Assembly: GCA_944372025.1 (NCBI GenBank) | Contig: CALVYE010000001.1 | Location: forward strand, 1-43,868 | Length of the DNA stretch: 43,868 nucleotides | Source: an uncultured Bacilli bacterium | GTDB lineage: Bacteria; Bacillota_I; Bacilli_A; RF39; UBA660 | Direction: 5' to 3' | Part shown: piece after piece, positions 16,921-43,868 of the stretch | Layout: the number at the start of each line of letters is the position of its first letter | Numbering within the stretch: position 1 is the first letter of the stretch | Made by a program: the position numbers and the translations under genes | The notes under the pieces: generated by a model | Database searches by the model: none | What the model was told of the DNA's origin: nothing | The model's input: the letters and a program-made list of their open reading frames with translations, nothing else

Positions 16921-17042
16921 AAAATTCAAATCCTTTCTTTTATACACTTAAATATATGTTTTTAAAAGAAAAAATATAAAATAAAATGAAACATATGAAT
17001 TTTAAATAATATAATAGTTAGTGATAAGATATGGAGGTAATT

Positions 17043-17879
17043 ATGGAATTTGAATTTTTTTATGAGGAAGATGAATATAGACAAGAGTTAAATCCAACAC
17101 TCGAAGAAGGCTCATCAGGAGATTATGTAATAATCTTACAAGAAAAATTAAAAATTTTAGACTATTATCTTGCCAGTATAACAGGTAATTTTGATGCTTA
17201 TACAAAAGAAGCGGTTATGAATTTTCAAGAAGATAATGATTTATTTCCAGATGGAACTGTAAATAATGAAACTTGGCAAGCTTTATATGAATTAACAGAT
17301 TATCCTGAAATAATTTCAAACGAAAAACAATCGAGACCTACTTTGAGACTTGGAAGTACAGGTCCTTATGTTATAGAACTACAAAATATTTTAAAAAATT
17401 TACTTTATTATAGTGGACCTATTAATGGTAATTTTGATACAGCAACACAAACTGCGGTAAAAAAATTTCAAACAAATAATAAACTTACTGCAGACGGTAT
17501 CGTAGGTAGAAATACTTGGAGTGCGCTTGTATCTTTGTATTCTCCCCTTGCTATTTGTAATGAAGAAAATACAGATGATAACATTTATATCGTTCAAAGT
17601 GGAGATACTTTATATTCGATTGCTAGAAGATTCGATACTACAGTTAATGATATTAAAAGACTAAATAATCTTACAAGTGATATTATATCAATTGGCCAAC
17701 AATTAATTATTCCCACAGCAGGTAGTGGTTCAGGTAATCAAATATATACTGTACAAAGTGGAGATACTTTATATTCGATTGCTAGAAGATTCGATACTAC
17801 AGTTGATGATATTAAAAGACTAAACAATCTTACAAGTGATATTATATCAATTGGCCAACAATTAATTATTCCGACTTAA
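17043..17879 (+). CDS. peptidoglycan-binding protein: 2x PG_binding_1 + 2x LysM, no signal peptide
   Basis: SD GGAGG 5 nt upstream. Two 'G..V..LQ..L...G.FD..T..AV..FQ' repeats, then two near-identical LysM modules 'YTVQSGDTLYSIARRFDTTV.DIKRLNNLTSDIISIGQQLIIPT'. Confidence 0.8.
   Translation: MEFEFFYEEDEYRQELNPTLEEGSSGDYVIILQEKLKILDYYLASITGNFDAYTKEAVMNFQEDNDLFPDGTVNNETWQALYELTDYPEIISNEKQSRPTLRLGSTGPYVIELQNILKNLLYYSGPINGNFDTATQTAVKKFQTNNKLTADGIVGRNTWSALVSLYSPLAICNEENTDDNIYIVQSGDTLYSIARRFDTTVNDIKRLNNLTSDIISIGQQLIIPTAGSGSGNQIYTVQSGDTLYSIARRFDTTVDDIKRLNNLTSDIISIGQQLIIPT
17595..17873 (+). repeat. tandem ~120-bp near-identical direct repeat (period 159 bp) encoding the two LysM modules
   Basis: 17595-17714 and 17754-17873 differ at only about 3 positions (gttaatgat/gttgatgat, aaataat/aaacaat, cccac/ccgac). 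Confidence 0.85.
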
Positions 17880-35513: not shown

Positions 35514-36368
35514 TTATTTGTTTTCTAACATTATATTGTCATCAACATATTCATATGGTAACAAATTATCTTTACTAATAACAGTTTCATTTAGGTTCTT
35601 TTCAATATCATCACGAGCAACTTTAGCAGCATGTCCACCCATTTTAGCAACTTCTTTGTTTTGTTTTAATCCACACGGTTTATGTTTCTTTGCTAACTCT
35701 CTAGTTGCTATTTCTCCTAAATCAGCTAATGCCACCTCAATATCTGTCATATTATCTCTTAAAGATTCTTTTCGAAGACCCTTATGAACTTTATACTCTT
35801 TGGCAGTCATTCCAGACCATTCCTTATAAATTTCATTAGTAAGAATAGCATATTCAACTTCTTCGGTAACTCCGTTATCTTTCCATATATTAGTTAATTT
35901 TTTTCTATCCTGAATACCCTTAATTCTTTTAATAATCCACTCTTCGTCATAACCTTTAGCACGATATATATCTATTGCTCTTTTAACAGGTATTGATGGA
36001 TCAAATATTTCATCAATTCTCTCACTACCAAGTTTAGCAAGCCATTGTTTTATAGGTTCAGCATTTTTGCTTGGAATAGATTCAATTATTCTAAACATAC
36101 CCTGAATATCACATACATCAGTATTGTAATATTTACCATCAGAAGACTTTAATTTCAGTTGGTGACAAATTGTCACCAACTCATTCCCTTCTTCTTTAAG
36201 ACGTTGTTTTAACTTATTCCAATACTTTCTGCCATCTTTACTTTCAGACACTACACTAACTATATCAATGACACTTATATAATATTTTTCTTTTTCTTTA
36301 TCCCAAATAGTTCTAATTGTTTCATTATTAAATATTTTATTTATTAAATACATTTTATCTTGTTTCAT
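35514..36368 (-). CDS. Bro-N domain / DNA-damage-inducible protein D (DinD)-like protein
   Basis: Bro-N-like N-terminus 'FNNETIRTIWDKEKEKYYISVIDIVSVVSES...YWNKLKQRL', and a DinD-type C-terminal half 'KEYKVHKGLRKESLRDNMTDIEVALADLGEIATRELA'. Confidence 0.7.
   Translation of the reverse strand: MKQDKMYLINKIFNNETIRTIWDKEKEKYYISVIDIVSVVSESKDGRKYWNKLKQRLKEEGNELVTICHQLKLKSSDGKYYNTDVCDIQGMFRIIESIPSKNAEPIKQWLAKLGSERIDEIFDPSIPVKRAIDIYRAKGYDEEWIIKRIKGIQDRKKLTNIWKDNGVTEEVEYAILTNEIYKEWSGMTAKEYKVHKGLRKESLRDNMTDIEVALADLGEIATRELAKKHKPCGLKQNKEVAKMGGHAAKVARDDIEKNLNETVISKDNLLPYEYVDDNIMLENK
36157..36181. repeat. 25-nt perfect palindrome inside the Bro-N/DinD-like CDS
   Basis: AGTTGGTGACAA-A-TTGTCACCAACT, read directly. 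The 12-nt arms are perfect. Confidence 0.9.
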
Positions 36369-37485: not shown

Positions 37486-39276
37486 CTAATTGTTTTTTGT
37501 AACTATTAACATACGTTTATTTTCAAATAATATTTTTACGTTTTCTAAATCGTTTTTGTTAAAATCATCCTTAAATATTATTAAATTTTTATTGGTTTCA
37601 TTTTTATACCAAGATTTTAAACTTTGTTTATATTTATAAGATATTAAATTGCCGTTATAATTATATTTTGGAAATATATCAGTTAATGCTTCCACCCATC
37701 TTAATTGCCAATAGTTTCCTATTGTTGATATTTCATTATTTTCATTTATTAGTTTTTCTTTATTGTTTGTAATATATTTAATTCCATCTATACAACTTTT
37801 ATTTAAAGTATCTATTGGATTTAAAATCAAATCAAAATTATGATTATATATATCCATTGTTTGTGATAAAATAGTATTTCCTGTGAGTTCAAAATTAAAT
37901 TCTTTAAGTCTTTCTTCGAATTTAAAAATCGAAAAAAAGAATATTAATATATATGAAATAATAAAAGATTTAAAAATCAGATTATTGTCTTTTTCAATTT
38001 TAATTAAAGCAATATATACTAAGTGCCAAGATAATAACCATATTAAAAAATAAGTTTTATGAAAATAATAAGCACTTAAAGAACCACATAAAACACTAAA
38101 TAATAATAGAGATACAACAATAACAGTAAAAATACATAGTATTTTTATAAAATTTTTTTCTTCTAATAATTTATATCCATATATAATAAAAGGTATTAGC
38201 AAAATAAAATTTGAAATAAAATTTTTATAAGACATTCCTTCGGAGGTTATCCCACTTGTAAATTCTTCAAAATTAGAAAAATTCGGTACTAAAAAATATA
38301 AACATCCAAATATAAAAGGTATTATTAAAGAAATTAGTATTAATAATAGAAATTCTTTTGATTTAATTTTATTATTTTCTTTATATATGTGTGTGAAGTA
38401 TATAAGTAAAGATGGATATACAATTGGTACAAATATATAATATGAGCAAAAAAGTCCAAAGGTTAAAATATTAAATACAAAAAAAGAATATATTTTATTT
38501 GAATCATTAATTTTGTACTGACTAATAAAATTAATAATTGTATTTATTATTAATATTCCAATTCCCCAATAAAATAAACCGTAAAGTAAATTATTTAATG
38601 GATATCCTAGAGTATATAAAATTGTGACAAAAAATGCAAGTAATATGTTTTTTTTTCTTTTTTCTTTTTTAGAAATTAAATAAAAGCTATACCCTGTTAA
38701 TACAAATAAAAACAAATTAAATATTACAAATATTTTGTATAGATCTAATATACTTAAAAAATTAAAAGATTTAAAAAGCATTCCTAAATTTACATAGCCT
38801 AAAAATTGAAATCCATTACCATAATTTTGAGCATTTTTAATATTTAATGTTGTATTCAATGAATCTCCCAATGCAAAATATCTAGAAGAGGTAAAATGTG
38901 CAGCTGCATCTGGCGAATTATAACTAAACAAAAAATCTTTGGTGAAAAAAAGAAAAAATACAATTATGGATATTATAATTAAAATAAATAAAATAATTAT
39001 ATCGCTTTTTCTAAAATAAAAACTATTGATGTTCTTTTTCTTTAGAATATCATATAAAAAATATAACGATGGAATTAAATTTAAAATTGTCATAGAAATT
39101 AATGTAATAGGAATGTATAGTAAATTCAATATATAAGCGCAAAATGAAGTATAACACATTATTACAACAATATTAATAGTTATCAAAAACATAACATTAA
39201 CTTTTTTATCAAAAAATTTTTTAAAAGTCAAAGTTATAAGTAATAATAATGTTGATAAAATATACAATAAACTCAT
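37486..39276 (-). CDS. polytopic membrane protein (596 aa, ~13 TM + ~120-aa C-terminal soluble domain); possible GT-C-type glycosyltransferase
   Basis: Very hydrophobic F/I/L-rich ORF. SD GGAGGG sits directly behind the pilin terminator. The first large loop carries 'SYNSPDAAAHFTSSRY'. Co-oriented with nfo, with a 17-nt gap. The fold class is an inference only. Confidence 0.5.
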   Translation of the reverse strand: MSLLYILSTLLLLITLTFKKFFDKKVNVMFLITINIVVIMCYTSFCAYILNLLYIPITLISMTILNLIPSLYFLYDILKKKNINSFYFRKSDIIILFILIIISIIVFFLFFTKDFLFSYNSPDAAAHFTSSRYFALGDSLNTTLNIKNAQNYGNGFQFLGYVNLGMLFKSFNFLSILDLYKIFVIFNLFLFVLTGYSFYLISKKEKRKKNILLAFFVTILYTLGYPLNNLLYGLFYWGIGILIINTIINFISQYKINDSNKIYSFFVFNILTFGLFCSYYIFVPIVYPSLLIYFTHIYKENNKIKSKEFLLLILISLIIPFIFGCLYFLVPNFSNFEEFTSGITSEGMSYKNFISNFILLIPFIIYGYKLLEEKNFIKILCIFTVIVVSLLLFSVLCGSLSAYYFHKTYFLIWLLSWHLVYIALIKIEKDNNLIFKSFIISYILIFFFSIFKFEERLKEFNFELTGNTILSQTMDIYNHNFDLILNPIDTLNKSCIDGIKYITNNKEKLINENNEISTIGNYWQLRWVEALTDIFPKYNYNGNLISYKYKQSLKSWYKNETNKNLIIFKDDFNKNDLENVKILFENKRMLIVTKNN

Positions 39277-39345: not shown

Positions 39346-39786
39346 TTATCCAGATATTGAAAAACCATCTGAACCGATTTCAGCTTTTAATTCTGATGTA
39401 GTGCTAGGTCCATCAATATAAATACCATATCCATTTGAAGAATATTTGAAGTTTGATATTTCGTAACTATCAGCACTATCACCTATGGTATAAAAATATG
39501 TATTACTACTATTAGATACACCGCTTGCAGTAGATACACTTTTGTCAGATCTTTCATAATAACCCTCTAAATCTTCAGGACCACAATTATCAGTATTTTG
39601 TTCAGCAGCCATACAAGTTTCTATAGATTTGATTAGCATTAAAGCTTCATCTTTAGTTGTGTTTTGTTTTGCTGTTCTTTGAATATTTAATACACTAGGA
39701 ACCGCAATAACTAAAATGATTGCTAAAATAACGATAACCGCTAACAATTCAATCAACGTAAACCCTTTTTTATTTAATTTTTTCAT
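39346..39786 (-). CDS. type IV pilin / pseudopilin-like protein with prepilin N-terminal cleavage-methylation motif
   Basis: 'MKKLNKKG|FTLIELLAVIVILAIILVIAV' is the canonical G/FTLIE class III signal with Glu+5. There are two Cys (C58, C68) in the globular part. SD GAGGAGG. Confidence 0.85.
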   Translation of the reverse strand: MKKLNKKGFTLIELLAVIVILAIILVIAVPSVLNIQRTAKQNTTKDEALMLIKSIETCMAAEQNTDNCGPEDLEGYYERSDKSVSTASGVSNSSNTYFYTIGDSADSYEISNFKYSSNGYGIYIDGPSTTSELKAEIGSDGFSISG

Positions 39787-39878: not shown

Positions 39879-40436
39879 CTAAATTTTACAACAATTTTTA
39901 TAAATATATAAATATGTAGAACCATATTTTTTTTGTTTTATGAGTTCTAAATTTTTAATGTTTTTATCTAAATATTCAGTATCAAATTCACAAATTATTA
40001 TACCACCATTATTAATTAAATTTTTTTCTATTATTTTATTAATAATATCATTTAAAATATGCATTTTATATGGCGGATCTAAAAAAATAATATCAAATTT
40101 AATTTTATTATTTTTAAAGTGATCCAAAGCATTTGTATAATCACTTTTAATAACTTTTGTTTTATTTTCAATATTAAAATCATTTAAATTTTTATTTAAG
40201 ACTTTAATAGCATCTATACTTTTATCTACAAAATAGCATTTTTTTGCGCCATTACTAATAGCTTCAATTCCAAGTGAACCACTTCCCGCAAATAAATCTA
40301 AACAAATAGAATCATTAACATAACTTTGAATAATTCCAAATAAACTTTCTTTTACTCTGTCCATGGTAGGTCTTGTACCATCTAAAGTATAGCCTAAAAT
40401 ATTTCTTCCTTTTAAAAAGCCACTAATTACTCTCAT
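39879..40436 (-). CDS. rsmD: 16S rRNA (guanine966-N2)-methyltransferase RsmD
   Basis: 'MRVISG..KGR', 'TRPTMDRVKESLF', 'DLFAGSGSLGIEAISNGA' and 'FLDPPY'. Confidence 0.9.
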   Translation of the reverse strand: MRVISGFLKGRNILGYTLDGTRPTMDRVKESLFGIIQSYVNDSICLDLFAGSGSLGIEAISNGAKKCYFVDKSIDAIKVLNKNLNDFNIENKTKVIKSDYTNALDHFKNNKIKFDIIFLDPPYKMHILNDIINKIIEKNLINNGGIIICEFDTEYLDKNIKNLELIKQKKYGSTYLYIYKNCCKI

Positions 40437-40938
40437 TTACATCACCTACAATAAATTCAATTTTACAATTGGTAAGCTTTTTAAGTCTTTTAATTTCTAT
40501 TCGCTTTTGAGTTTCTAAAAAAATGAAATTATATACTGCTTCCCAAACAACTACCCAGCTTATTATTAACAAAGTTTCTGGTATCCAGGATAACTCAAAA
40601 TTGTTTAAAAAATTATAAATACATATTAAAAATATTCCAACAATAAACAATATTAATCCTTTAACATTAGTATATTTAATGTATAGCATATTTTCTTTGA
40701 TATCTATTCCATAGTTTGAACGTATCATATCTACAATTTTTTCTTTTTCATCATCAGTAAATTGTTTTGAAGTGTGAATATTTATTTTTATATTTTCTTT
40801 TAAAGAATTACCTTTACATTCACTATAAATATAATTACTTAACTCATCGGATAGTGTTGTATTGTTAAATTTATTTGTTATATCATCTAAATTATCTACT
40901 GTAATATTAATGTTAATTTCTTTATTATTCATATTCAT
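40423..40938 (-). CDS. hypothetical membrane protein (171 aa, 2 TM)
   Basis: Intact ORF whose stop overlaps the rsmD start by 14 nt. Two hydrophobic helices lie in the C-terminal half. The start may be the third codon (ATG at 40932), which has better SD spacing. Confidence 0.5.
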   Translation of the reverse strand: MNMNNKEININITVDNLDDITNKFNNTTLSDELSNYIYSECKGNSLKENIKINIHTSKQFTDDEKEKIVDMIRSNYGIDIKENMLYIKYTNVKGLILFIVGIFLICIYNFLNNFELSWIPETLLIISWVVVWEAVYNFIFLETQKRIEIKRLKKLTNCKIEFIVGDVNESN

Positions 40939-40962
40939 ACTCCATTCTTAAGATATTATATA

Positions 40963-41010
40963 ACAAAAAAAATATAAGATAAATATTTTTAAATAAATTT
41001 ATCTTATATT
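40963..41010 (-). terminator. strong rho-independent terminator after the 886-aa gene
   Basis: 13-bp perfect arms atataagataaat (40971-40983) and atttatcttatat (40996-41008), extended by A/T runs. T8 tail on the minus strand. Confidence 0.7.
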
Positions 41011-41039
41011 TTAGTTTATAGTGTTTGTTTATATATCCT

Positions 41040-43700
41040 TTATGGAATTAGGACTACGCGAAACCCGTCGTTAGAACTAGATGTACCATTATTGACGTTG
41101 GAGTAGACGACACCCGCAGTGGACGTAGTAAGATAGTTACCACCACGATTAGACCAAGGAAGACTAACATATGGAAAGTTATAGGCGTCGGAATACCATC
41201 TCATAGTTTCATATGTTGCATCTCCTTTGATTGATTTTTCTGATGTTATACTACTTGAACTTGTTCCTGTATATTTTTCATAATATTTACTTCCATTACT
41301 TCCTCCTGGAAAATTACTTGTTGTAAATCCTGAACTCCCTACTGTTCCTGCCCAGTTACTCATTGTGTATTCATACGATCCTCCACTCATATCATATATT
41401 CCATATATCGTCCCTGTTGTTGAAGCCCCTGTCCCTTTTCCTGCTACTTTTTCTCCTTTTGTATTTGTATTATAATTTAATAAATAATCATCGTATGTAT
41501 AAAAACCATATGTAATATATTGTGTTGTACTACTTTGATCTGGATATGTTTCATTTATTGGTGTACTTCCCCCTGGTCCTCCTCCACTTCTTCCTGTATA
41601 GTGACTTGAACTATTATTTTTATATATTTCTTTGTTAACTCCACTGTAATTAGGATTTCCCATCTTTCCATATTTGCTTTGGGATAAGTACGCTACTGCT
41701 CCCCATTCGGTATTCTTCATCATGTGTGTATCTGTACTTGATGTTAATCCATATGTTGCATTACCTGAGAATGTTACTGTTCCATTACTTGTACTTCTTG
41801 TTCCTCCTGCAAACTTCAATGATGTATCAAATTGGGTACTTACATTTTGACTTCTTAATGCTGCTACATCAGGTTTTATTGTTGGTGTTGTTGAACTTCC
41901 ACTTGTCTCAAATTTTCCTACCCAGATTCCTTCTAACTCTTCATCCCAGCCTCCTTGGTCATATGCTGTTGTTTTGTATACACTGCTTCCATCCCTAAAT
42001 GCTGGATGTGTATAATAACAACTTGTTGATGTGATTGAACACGATTCTAAAGCAGTACCCGTTGTATTTGTTCCACTTTCAAATACTACATCTATTTCTG
42101 GTGGACTTGTTACTGCACTACTACTTCCTATATTTGATGGTATTCTATATTTATATCTTGGTATCCATACCCACATACTATTTATTGAACTCATCGGTAT
42201 TGTCGTTCCTGGAGAAGCTGTTCTATATGTTGAAGAACTTGTCGTTACTGCATTCGCCCATATTCCATTTTCATAATCATGCCATGCTTGTTTTGTGTTA
42301 GCCTTTACCCAGTTCCCTGTTGTACTATTATATACTACCGGTATCATTCCTTCTGTTAATTCTGGTTCATTCGCTCCACTGCTATCAGAATATATCTTTG
42401 TTAATTTTGCATATCCATTTCCAGATTGAGCTCCGGTTTCTCCTGAGGTATTATCTCCACTTGAAAAACTTCTTGTTTGATATGAAGATCCACTCCATCC
42501 TCCTCCATAACTTTGGTTATCATCGGCGCATCCGCCTCCTCCAAAACCACCTCTACATATTCCACTATTTCTTGTGTAATATCCTCCTACTGAGTTATAA
42601 CTTATGAATTGAGAAATCCCTAATACGGATGATAGATTCGCTGAAGTATTACTACTTGTTCCTGCTGCTGTAGTTTTACTATATGCAGTTAGGTTACTTG
42701 GTGAATACCATGTGTCTCCAACTCCATCTTTTCCATCGTATGCTGAACCTCTATACGAACTATCTCCAGTTCCTCCTCCACCTGCTGCTACCATTAATAC
42801 TTCATAATTTGTTGAATCTTTAGTAAATTGATAATTACTATTACTTATTGATGATATTGTTTTGAAGATAAAAGTTCCTCCTCCACCTGCTCCACTTGTT
42901 CCATCTTTTGCCGTTGCCTGTGTTACACTTCCTTGGCCTCCTACTACTAAGGTAATTACATCTCCTTTATTTAAATTGAATTTTGATTTTAGTTTAGCTC
43001 CTTTTCCTGGCACTGGTGTTGTCGATGAGGTATATGAATATTCATTTCCTCTTGTTCCTTCTGCTCCTGCTACTTCTATTTCATATAACCCTGTCTCTGG
43101 TATTGTATATGTTCTTACTGCTCCTGTATATGAGAATGTTGTTGTATTACTTGTTGTCTCTATTGTTTCTTTAGATAATGATGAGTGTCCACTACTTAAG
43201 GATACACTATTATTCTCATATCCTCCTTCTACTCCTATTTCTACTGTTAAACTTGATGTTGATGTATTCTTTACTGCTACCATAACTTCTGTAGATGCTC
43301 CTGATTCCAATACTGTAGATTCTACACCTGGACTTATGTATGCAATCTTTACTGTTGAACCACTTGGTAAACTTGATGGAGTTATTGCGTCATAGTAAAC
43401 TTTATATTTTGCAGTTATTGGAGAATTATTAGTTATTGTAAAATTTATATATTTTGTTACTCCTGCTGCTACGGTTATTCTCTTTGTACTATTACTATAT
43501 GTTGTATCTGTTGATGTGATTGAAAAATTTACTGTACCGGCAGTAATTGAAGCTACATTAGTTTTTTCTACTGTTCCTGAAAATAAAGCTAAAGATTCAT
43601 ACAACACAAAACCTAGCATTGATAATGCTATTACAAATAGAACTATAATTTCTCTTATATAATATTCTTTTTTTAATATTTCCCTAATGCTAGTCCACAT
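41040..43700 (-). CDS. large exported Ser/Thr/Gly-rich protein: SipW/TasA-type leader + beta-rich domain + ALK/LTK-type glycine-rich domain + divergent FGE-sulfatase-like domain
   Basis: SD AGGTGA. Hydrophobic segment at aa 15-35, then 'SLALFSGTVEKTNVASITAGTVNF'. At aa ~186-436: 'FSYTGAVRTYTIPETGLYEIEVAGAEG...LVVGGQG...GAGGGGTF...VAAGGGGTG...GGFGGGGC...YGGGWSG'. At aa ~445-886: 'MWVWIPRY', 'HPAF', 'GIWVGKFE', 'NTEWGAVAYL', 'GIYDMSGGSYEY', 'RGGNY' and terminal 'GFRVVLIP'. Confidence 0.8.
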   Translation of the reverse strand: MWTSIREILKKEYYIREIIVLFVIALSMLGFVLYESLALFSGTVEKTNVASITAGTVNFSITSTDTTYSNSTKRITVAAGVTKYINFTITNNSPITAKYKVYYDAITPSSLPSGSTVKIAYISPGVESTVLESGASTEVMVAVKNTSTSSLTVEIGVEGGYENNSVSLSSGHSSLSKETIETTSNTTTFSYTGAVRTYTIPETGLYEIEVAGAEGTRGNEYSYTSSTTPVPGKGAKLKSKFNLNKGDVITLVVGGQGSVTQATAKDGTSGAGGGGTFIFKTISSISNSNYQFTKDSTNYEVLMVAAGGGGTGDSSYRGSAYDGKDGVGDTWYSPSNLTAYSKTTAAGTSSNTSANLSSVLGISQFISYNSVGGYYTRNSGICRGGFGGGGCADDNQSYGGGWSGSSYQTRSFSSGDNTSGETGAQSGNGYAKLTKIYSDSSGANEPELTEGMIPVVYNSTTGNWVKANTKQAWHDYENGIWANAVTTSSSTYRTASPGTTIPMSSINSMWVWIPRYKYRIPSNIGSSSAVTSPPEIDVVFESGTNTTGTALESCSITSTSCYYTHPAFRDGSSVYKTTAYDQGGWDEELEGIWVGKFETSGSSTTPTIKPDVAALRSQNVSTQFDTSLKFAGGTRSTSNGTVTFSGNATYGLTSSTDTHMMKNTEWGAVAYLSQSKYGKMGNPNYSGVNKEIYKNNSSSHYTGRSGGGPGGSTPINETYPDQSSTTQYITYGFYTYDDYLLNYNTNTKGEKVAGKGTGASTTGTIYGIYDMSGGSYEYTMSNWAGTVGSSGFTTSNFPGGSNGSKYYEKYTGTSSSSITSEKSIKGDATYETMRWYSDAYNFPYVSLPWSNRGGNYLTTSTAGVVYSNVNNGTSSSNDGFRVVLIP

Positions 43701-43739
43701 TGTATCACCTATTTTATTGTACTTTATCTCATTATTTAA

Positions 43740-43768
43740 AGTATATTATATTTTTGACATTTTTTCAA
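43740..43768 (-). promoter_or_regulatory. putative promoter of the 886-aa gene
   Basis: The minus strand has TTGAAA (43763-43768), a 17-nt spacer and TATACT (43740-43745), about 40 nt upstream of the ATG. Confidence 0.4.
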
Positions 43769-43868
43769 TATAAAAAATATTTCAATATTAATATTTTATA
43801 TAATAGTAGAATAAAAACTGAAGTGCACAGAAGTAGTGCAGTAAATATTAAAAAGAAGTATAATAACA

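Follow-up and report, generated by a model that had tools for sequence, protein, structure and literature searches.

Introduction

The variable proteins of diversity-generating retroelements (DGRs) include an established target class in which C-type-lectin (CLec) variable regions (VRs) lie within FGE-type domains, with varied appended domains and targets that are sometimes remote (PMC5758913). TaqVP of Thermus aquaticus (5VF4, whose identity as a DGR variable protein we checked in the literature), TvpA of Treponema denticola (2Y3C) and Mtd of Bordetella phage BPP-1 have a C-type-lectin fold that is of the FGE subtype, a VR at the extreme C-terminus and variation at AAY-type codons. Here we describe a gene whose product shares these features. 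It lies on the minus strand (41040..43700) of a 43,868-nucleotide (nt) stretch of DNA from an uncultured Bacilli bacterium, a whole contig (CALVYE010000001.1) that we call the window. The product, a protein of 886 amino acids (aa) referred to below as the query, differs from the described proteins in being fused to a glycine-rich domain, an immunoglobulin (Ig)-like stalk and a TasA-like leader, and in that its contig has no template repeat (TR), Avd or reverse transcriptase (RT) and no hairpin after the VR.

We propose that the query is probably an exported four-module ligand-binding protein with a DGR-type VR, most likely a stranded allele that is now fixed and partly ameliorated. The original prediction, made from the letters of this DNA, had read it as an unusual fusion of a TasA-type leader, a glycine-rich domain and an FGE-sulfatase-like domain, and missed that its C-terminal domain (C-domain) belongs to a DGR variable-protein family, with the last 49 codons as variable region.

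Results

Fold and family of the C-domain

The C-domain (aa 437-886; 41043..42392, minus strand) was assigned to the C-type-lectin/FGE-like fold of the DGR variable-protein type from an AlphaFold2 (AF2) model (pLDDT 89.2, pTM 0.93), Foldseek and profile comparison. In the PDB the best Foldseek match was TaqVP (5vf4, E = 1e-7), followed by Mtd (2e-3), FGE (~1e-2) and TvpA (1.4e-2), with PvdO and EgtB also among the matches. Searching the PDB with the query as a single sequence gave no match, and a profile of the family gave 5vf4 as its sole significant match among PDB sequences (E = 1.4e-5). The two domains differ: sequence identity is ~14%, the TM-score is 0.4-0.5, and the query domain, at 450 aa, is ~70 residues longer than TaqVP (381 aa). 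It corresponds to the category 'b' targets of Wu et al. 2018 (PMC5758913). Among viral predicted structures (BFVD), the C-domain matches SUMF-like and tail-fibre proteins of gut phages.

The FGE-sulfatase/SUMF1 domain that had been predicted here stands at the level of fold: the query shares the fold family and the motifs HxMxNxEW, GIYDMSGG and RGG. At the level of sequence family it does not, as PF03781 (FGE-sulfatase) gave no match at E <= 10 with either the whole protein or the C-domain alone. FGE enzymes carry a catalytic Cys pair near the C-terminus. Cysteines occur in the query only at positions 382, 391, 554 and 561, with none in aa 562-886 (the last 325 residues), and the catalytic pair is therefore absent; the domain would act as a scaffold for binding instead of as an enzyme. 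In individual scans, the homologues P0030, P0039 and P0021 also stayed below the PF03781 cut-off (for example 21.5 vs 23.3 bits for P0030).

A first homologue search returned 82 clusters, and the BLAST map showed a modular protein. An exhaustive phmmer search with the C-domain then gave 3,369 representative clusters at E <= 1e-3 (763 at E <= 1e-30), so that at 50% identity the family numbers over 3,300 clusters. The query's C-domain and most other members escape Pfam, and we found no description of the family in the literature. Most relatives are ~600 aa long and consist of a leader and an N-terminal domain (N-domain) joined straight to the C-domain, with no glycine-rich domain; others start with the classical prepilin motif KGFTLIE. 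In 70 diverse representatives, Pfam found N_methyl in 20, FGE-sulfatase in seven (E <= 1e-3, best 1.5e-6), dockerin in four, and a glycine-rich domain and Peptidase_M73 in one each. At the far end of this range are giant proteins (P0084, P0088 and P0099) of 3,700-4,500 aa in which the C-domain is present 7-10 times; P0084 combines it with three ALK_LTK_GRD domains, eight Flg_new repeats and one Gly_rich_2 domain.

Almost all genome matches are metagenome-assembled genomes (MAGs) of uncultured 'Bacilli' or 'Tenericutes' of the gut (goat, rabbit, Hadza, mouse and chicken), and several copies of the C-domain gene per MAG are common. The window and related loci contain genes for sporulation and peptidoglycan, which show that the host is a walled spore-former.

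DGR cassettes beside relatives

The C-domain family is a recurrent DGR target in uncultured gut Bacilli. The closest non-orthologous homologue of the query, P0004 at locus L087, has the same architecture and 68% identity in the C-domain, and it is followed downstream by bAvd and RVT_1 genes. A repeat of 140 nt links the 3' end of P0004 (the VR) to a copy upstream of avd (the TR). Of the 23 positions at which the two copies differ, 21 are adenines in the second copy, the signature of a TR/VR pair. With the RT and Avd of L087 as tblastn queries, we located cassettes in 10 of 80 genome loci, at a distance of 1-3 kb on the downstream side of the C-domain gene and with RTs 47-54% identical to that of L087. 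Eight of the ten have adenine-biased VR/TR pairs. The bias is near-exclusive in six (15/15, 17/17, 20/21, 19/21, 16/17 and 11/12 mismatches at adenines) and weaker in two (13/16 and 16/23).

The linked VRs also have a composition of their own. Across 93 family 3' ends, the G+C content at third codon positions (GC3) of RT-linked VRs is 0.51-0.78 (median 0.55), compared with 0.16 for the rest of the gene. GC3 is bimodal in VRs without a linked RT, with a median of 0.22 and with about 20 of 83 loci at 0.47 or above; decayed VRs have host-like values of 0.08-0.25. A stem-loop immediately 3' of the VR is reportedly a recognition element in BPP-1-type DGRs. In this family a hairpin of 12-14 bp that spans the stop codon follows the VR at L087 (-19 kcal/mol) and at L001 and L002 (both -19.5 kcal/mol).

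Further repeats and elements were seen around these genes. In four DGR loci (L028:12653-13794, L029:7018-8467, L034:7639-9042 and L050:12637-13803) the interval from the target gene to avd holds four or five TR-like repeats, each ~110 nt long and spaced by ~340 nt, of which one copy only has clean adenine-only mismatches to the VR; these could be multiple templates or short extra targets. At L089:12012-12106 a 95-nt TR-like copy of the P0045 VR lies 190 nt downstream of the gene, with 16 of its 22 mismatches at adenines, a 125-aa open reading frame (ORF) after it and no RT within 10 kb; it may belong to a DGR that is decaying or whose RT is distant. Conserved sequence of ~90 nt follows the post-VR hairpin in L087, L001 and L090 (…CCCTCA…AAGCAGGAAAA…AAAATACAAAGAAGAG…). 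An RT beside the paralogue P0003 (L090) was rejected as a DGR: it belongs to a group II intron (RVT_1 + GIIM, GTGTG 5' end) and has no VR/TR repeat. This intron (L090:12760-14536) directly follows the P0003 terminator, and a 5' fragment of it lies downstream of P0001 (L001:12828-13010).

The variable region of the window gene

Divergence, codon-position bias, GC3 and coincidence with AAY codons delimit a VR in the last 49 codons of the window gene (aa 838-886; 41043..41189, minus strand). The reference for this comparison is the orthologue P0001, which occupies the same locus in L001 and is 90% identical to the query. Amino acids differ at 40.8% of positions in the last 49 codons and at 8.4% over 836 codons (Fisher p = 4.7e-9). 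The excess lies in the first two codon positions: the ratio of nucleotide changes at positions 1 and 2 to those at position 3 is 27:11 in the VR and 89:145 elsewhere (p = 1.7e-4), and third-position change in the VR (11/49) equals the background rate. The window VR has a GC3 of 0.39, and the remainder of the gene 0.15; the VR of P0001 has 0.55 and that of the DGR-linked P0004 has 0.53.

Variable codons were also compared with the 17 AAY codons of the L087 TR, a test that is indirect, the template used being a related TR and not the cognate one. Codons that vary between the query and P0001 fall on 13 of the 17 AAY positions and on 7 of 29 others (p = 8e-4). The corresponding counts are 12/17 and 9/29 for P0002 (p = 0.014) and 17/17 and 10/29 for P0003 (p = 5.6e-6). 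Seven of the 49 window VR codons are still AAY, the G+C-rich stretch TTTCGCGTAG is kept at the VR 3' end, and the VR shares homology with that of P0004, for which a bona fide TR exists. From these patterns in the sequence we conclude that the window VR is in all probability of DGR origin. By fold and VR, the protein belongs to the DGR variable-protein class; its locus is without TR, RT and hairpin.

A mosaic relative was found in another metagenome. L092:1-2798 (P0232, a third member of the cluster), compared with window positions 41040-43868, shows 100% identity over the 146 nt that precede the ATG and ~100% identity, with five synonymous differences, over the initial ~1,750 nt of the gene; beyond that point identity falls to ~85%, the terminator is different and the downstream genes are unrelated. 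Upstream of the gene, both contigs end within the same intergenic region. Either the gene has had its 3' half exchanged through recombination or duplication, or paralogues were joined into a chimera in the L092 assembly.

Stranded or diversified in trans

Several observations weigh against reading the window gene as a DGR target, stranded or otherwise. TR, Avd and RT are missing from the entire contig, in which tblastn with the L087 RT and Avd gave only chance matches and no ORF matched RVT_1. Three pattern scans of the collection for the inferred cognate TR returned zero matches, and the orthologous locus L001 likewise yielded no TR. The post-VR hairpin of L001, L002 and L087 is not in the window (-3.7 kcal/mol, compared with -19 to -22), where a plain terminator occupies the site of the stop-straddling hairpin. 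Comparison of the window VR with the L087 TR shows 31 non-adenine differences, so that this TR is not its template, which must be another, unseen TR. P0001 is identical in two samples, and diversification in its lineage is thus not fast. In one DGR-bearing MAG, the TR of L043 had no match of at least 72% identity in the paralogues L061, L083 and L085. As for the fold, TM-scores to TaqVP are modest (0.40-0.49) and the profile match spans only ~150 residues. Export, cleavage, surface location and ligand binding are, moreover, all properties that we infer.

A rival reading, in which the window copy is still diversified in trans and is a remote target whose DGR lies on a different contig of its genome, is one that we regard as unlikely. 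Remote DGR targets are documented (PMC5758913). The window VR lies well over the GC3 range of decayed VRs, has retained seven AAY codons and TTTCGCGTAG, and has an orthologue (L001) that keeps the DGR-type hairpin; loci of high VR GC3 with no linked RT also occur in the family. Against it stand the lost hairpin, a GC3 under that of every RT-linked VR, the TR that three scans did not find, and the fact that the sole same-MAG test gave no trans targets. A wider form of this idea, in which a large DGR-programmed hypervariable family exists in uncultured gut Bacilli, its proteins being exported behind TasA-like leaders or as modular type IV pilins and in some cases joined to an ALK-like glycine-rich module, the window gene is a living member of it that is rewritten in trans, and paralogues swap 3' halves, is in our judgement doubtful.

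It is improbable that the lineage never had a DGR and that the C-terminus became hypervariable through ordinary diversifying selection and recombination among paralogues. The mosaicism of L092 would agree with such a history, as would the faster evolution of the C-domain as a whole relative to the N-terminal half and the host-like GC3 of the hypervariable VRs in P0002 and P0003. It is contradicted by VR third positions that stay at background when positions 1 and 2 are strongly raised, by variable codons that fall on the AAY codons of a related TR, and by an orthologue bearing the hairpin of the DGR-linked L087. Nor can it account for a genome-foreign GC3 confined to the VR, as in RT-linked VRs. 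The reading of the window gene as a stranded DGR target is the one that we prefer.

Leader, stalk and glycine-rich domain

The leader (aa 1-38; 43587..43700, minus strand) has a charged n-region, a hydrophobic stretch at aa 17-34 and an S-L-A sequence with a putative cleavage site before L39. Most homologues with a leader of this type have [ST]-[YFL]-A and then [YLWM]-[FW] after the hydrophobic region. To judge by these motifs, the protein would be exported behind a Sec-type leader with a TasA/camelysin-like cleavage region, and the leader may either be cleaved after Ala38 by type I signal peptidase or be kept uncleaved as an anchor. In the AF2 model of aa 1-440 (pLDDT 81.9), aa 2-46 are helical, aa 59-178 fold into a beta-sandwich and the glycine-rich domain comes next. 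The sandwich forms the N-domain, an Ig-like stalk (aa ~55-180; 43161..43538, minus strand; pLDDT mostly 84-91), which is common to P0005, P0009, P0011-14 and P0016. Its Foldseek matches are generic Ig-like ones only (WxLIP, complement MG domains and Saf/Caf pilins, E 0.01-0.1), and a homologue search with the N-terminal 190 aa alone returned one fragment.

According to the original prediction, the N-terminus combines a hydrophobic leader, an 'ALFSGT...ITAGTVNF' string and a beta-strand domain at aa ~60-180, with no sipW nearby, and all of this was borne out, the last point within the window. That the leader is of TasA/SipW type holds as a likeness of motif, namely a hydrophobic leader followed by A-x-F...AGT-hydrophobic, and not as a profile match. 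PF12389 (camelysin/TasA) did not match the query, and NCBIfam gave nothing usable with the whole protein and, with its first 100 aa, no TasA- or SipW-type match and none of the expected TIGR04088-like leader matches (a weak BasB match was discarded, at E = 0.007 and 16 bits against a cut-off of 230).

A further step would be to see the query as a SipW-processed fibre or adhesin subunit of the TasA/camelysin kind that carries an FGE-sulfatase-type domain, and this we consider very improbable. Some relatives do point in that direction: PF12389 rises above its cut-off in homologues such as P0030 and P0039, over the leader and first strands only, and hhalign ties the leader group of the query to the PF12389-positive group (probability 81%, E = 1.2e-5). 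FGE enzymes are, as seen above, among the fold matches of the C-domain. However, TasA (Peptidase_M73, SipW-dependent) is absent from the 50 best Foldseek matches of the aa 1-440 model, no model matches the query leader, and neither the window nor the nine homologue neighbourhoods inspected contain sipW or any other Peptidase_S26 gene. The C-domain, for its part, has no significant PF03781 match and no catalytic Cys, and 20 of 70 family representatives carry prepilin leaders instead.

These prepilin-bearing members would be pilin moieties with a grafted binding module. In this respect they resemble modular type IV pilins such as Streptococcus sanguinis PilB (PMC8179133), and a lone prepilin gene (39346-39786) lies 1.3 kb downstream of the query gene. 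The query itself differs from such pilins in having no prepilin motif: PF07963 (N_methyl) gave no match, and its 'G-FVLYE' string sits after, not before, the hydrophobic stretch. The lone gene (minus strand) encodes 146 aa with MKKLNKKGFTLIELL (PF07963, E = 1.6e-8) and is found at the same place in L001 and L002; there are no pilus assembly genes in the window.

Between stalk and C-domain lies an ALK/LTK-type glycine-rich domain (aa 186-436; 42393..43145, minus strand). The prediction of such a domain was confirmed by PF12810 (ALK_LTK_GRD) at aa 202-434, with E = 9.8e-10, 39.3 bits against a cut-off of 24.5 and 236 of 243 profile positions covered, the sole Pfam match of the query, and by Foldseek on the AF2 model (E = 1.9e-11 and probability 1.0 to ALK/LTK structures). 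The query thus shares profile and fold with ALK/LTK (PDB 7LRZ, 7NX1); it differs in that its domain is bacterial and extracellular, has no kinase, and stands between an Ig-like stalk and a CLec domain. Related domains also occur in phage proteins, and PHROG families with no assigned function match the query in the glycine-rich region only. In the literature we found no description of bacterial PF12810 proteins or of their function. The domain may serve as a second binding module or as a rigid spacer.

The original prediction knew of no characterised protein with this combination of modules. The combination is not unique to the query: the fusion of a glycine-rich domain with the C-domain recurs in at least 11 other clusters (P0001-4, P0024, P0061, P0065, P0068, P0072, P0084 and P0205). 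A home-made hidden Markov model of the glycine-rich domain was dropped, having missed the Pfam positives P0004 and P0084, and the Pfam scan of the 70 representatives was used instead. At L006:10468-14679 the C-domain gene P0056 lies beside a 123-aa ORF, a 330-aa protein that consists of ALK_LTK_GRD alone and three consecutive sigma-70-family genes, which shows that glycine-rich and CLec modules also exist as separate adjoining genes. What is new here is the sequence family, its alternative TasA-like and prepilin leaders, and its fusion with an ALK-type glycine-rich domain.

Gene signals, composition and neighbourhood

The gene is uninterrupted (stop codon at 41040-42), and its exact protein is P0231 in the public collection. 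Direct reading of the sequence places a Shine-Dalgarno AGGTGA at 43705..43710 (minus strand), 4 nt ahead of the ATG at 43700. A single ORF with its own Shine-Dalgarno had been predicted, together with a protein rich in Ser, Thr, Gly, Tyr and Asn, a G+C content above that of the neighbours and five antisense ORFs, and each of these descriptions is correct. Residue shares are S 14.9%, T 13.2%, G 12.2%, Y 7.1% and N 6.3%; the G+C content is 0.356, compared with 0.19-0.30 for adjoining genes; and the plus strand holds five ORFs of at least 60 aa (60-177 aa) at 41726-41998, 42031-42276, 42035-42301, 42320-42607 and 42862-43395. GC3 of the gene (0.16) equals that of the neighbours and the excess is entirely at second positions (0.53), so that the high G+C content reflects amino-acid composition, not foreign DNA, and horizontal transfer as its source was rejected.

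As for the predicted promoter and 13-bp-stem terminator, an intrinsic terminator is present (40961..41012, hairpin 40969-41012, minus strand; -14.9 kcal/mol, z = -4.2), with an A+T stem of 16 bp, not 13, and a U8 tract. The promoter-like pair TTGAAA-17-TATACT (43740..43768, minus strand), found by consensus scan, is weak evidence in an AT-rich region, as shuffled sequence yields such hexamer matches at about the same frequency (27 found against an expected 20.4). A small hairpin at 43840-43824 is the probable end of the gene upstream, which in the orthologous locus is a SASP gene.

The gene stands among housekeeping genes. On the minus strand, 40423-40938 encodes a 171-aa protein that matches no family and has two hydrophobic segments C-terminally; the end of its gene overlaps the rsmD start by 14 nt. 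The protein is a tandem pair in L001 and L002 (166 and 169 aa, 51% and 86% identical). A link between this neighbour and the C-domain family was discarded, since it is present only in L001, L002 and L019. A 596-aa polytopic membrane protein with no Pfam match (37486-39276, minus strand) is absent from L001 and from every fetched locus; in L001 the prepilin gene is followed directly by an AP_endonuc_2 gene. The 596-aa gene looks like an insertion in the window lineage, and a candidate reading of it as a paralogue was rejected. A Bro-N protein (35514-36368, minus strand; phrog_15286, E = 4e-98) lies alone among housekeeping genes, where L001 has other small ORFs. On the plus strand, a 145-nt tandem direct repeat of 92% identity (17572-17875), inside a gene with PG_binding_1 and LysM domains (17031-17879), corresponds to two LysM repeats.

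That the query gene is a prophage tail-fibre or receptor-binding gene is hardly credible: the tail collar fibre proteins of gut phages among its BFVD fold matches, the PHROG matches of its glycine-rich domain and the phage-like Bro-N gene 5 kb away are outweighed by its Sec-type leader, own promoter and own terminator, by native codon usage, by the rsmD and PBP genes that flank it (SASP and thiI in the orthologous locus) and by homologues that lie among housekeeping genes too.

Discussion

In relatives of the query, the TR is copied by an Avd-RT cassette into cDNA that has errors at adenines, and this cDNA replaces the final ~140 nt of the gene, so that ~17 AAY-encoded residues of the binding surface are randomised and scaffold residues stay fixed. 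The window copy bears the imprint of such retrohoming in its last 49 codons, and an ordinary terminator has taken the place of the hairpin. The Sec leader would export the protein and the Ig-like stalk would display the CLec domain, which may bind a ligand through its VR face.

We know of no natural targeted protein hypermutation outside adaptive immunity other than that of DGR variable proteins. A large family from poorly known gut Bacilli, mostly unrecognised by Pfam, is now placed in this class. If, as we doubt, the window gene were still being rewritten in trans and paralogues exchanged their 3' halves, these bacteria would have two tiers of variation in surface ligand specificity, cassette exchange and mutagenic retrohoming. 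As a stranded allele, which is what we think it probably is, the window copy offers a picture of a variable protein uncoupled from its retroelement, with the composition of the VR partly ameliorated and the hairpin lost. It gives this gene a concrete annotation and a testable prediction of its binding site (aa 838-886), and it should be useful for the annotation of other orphan VRs.

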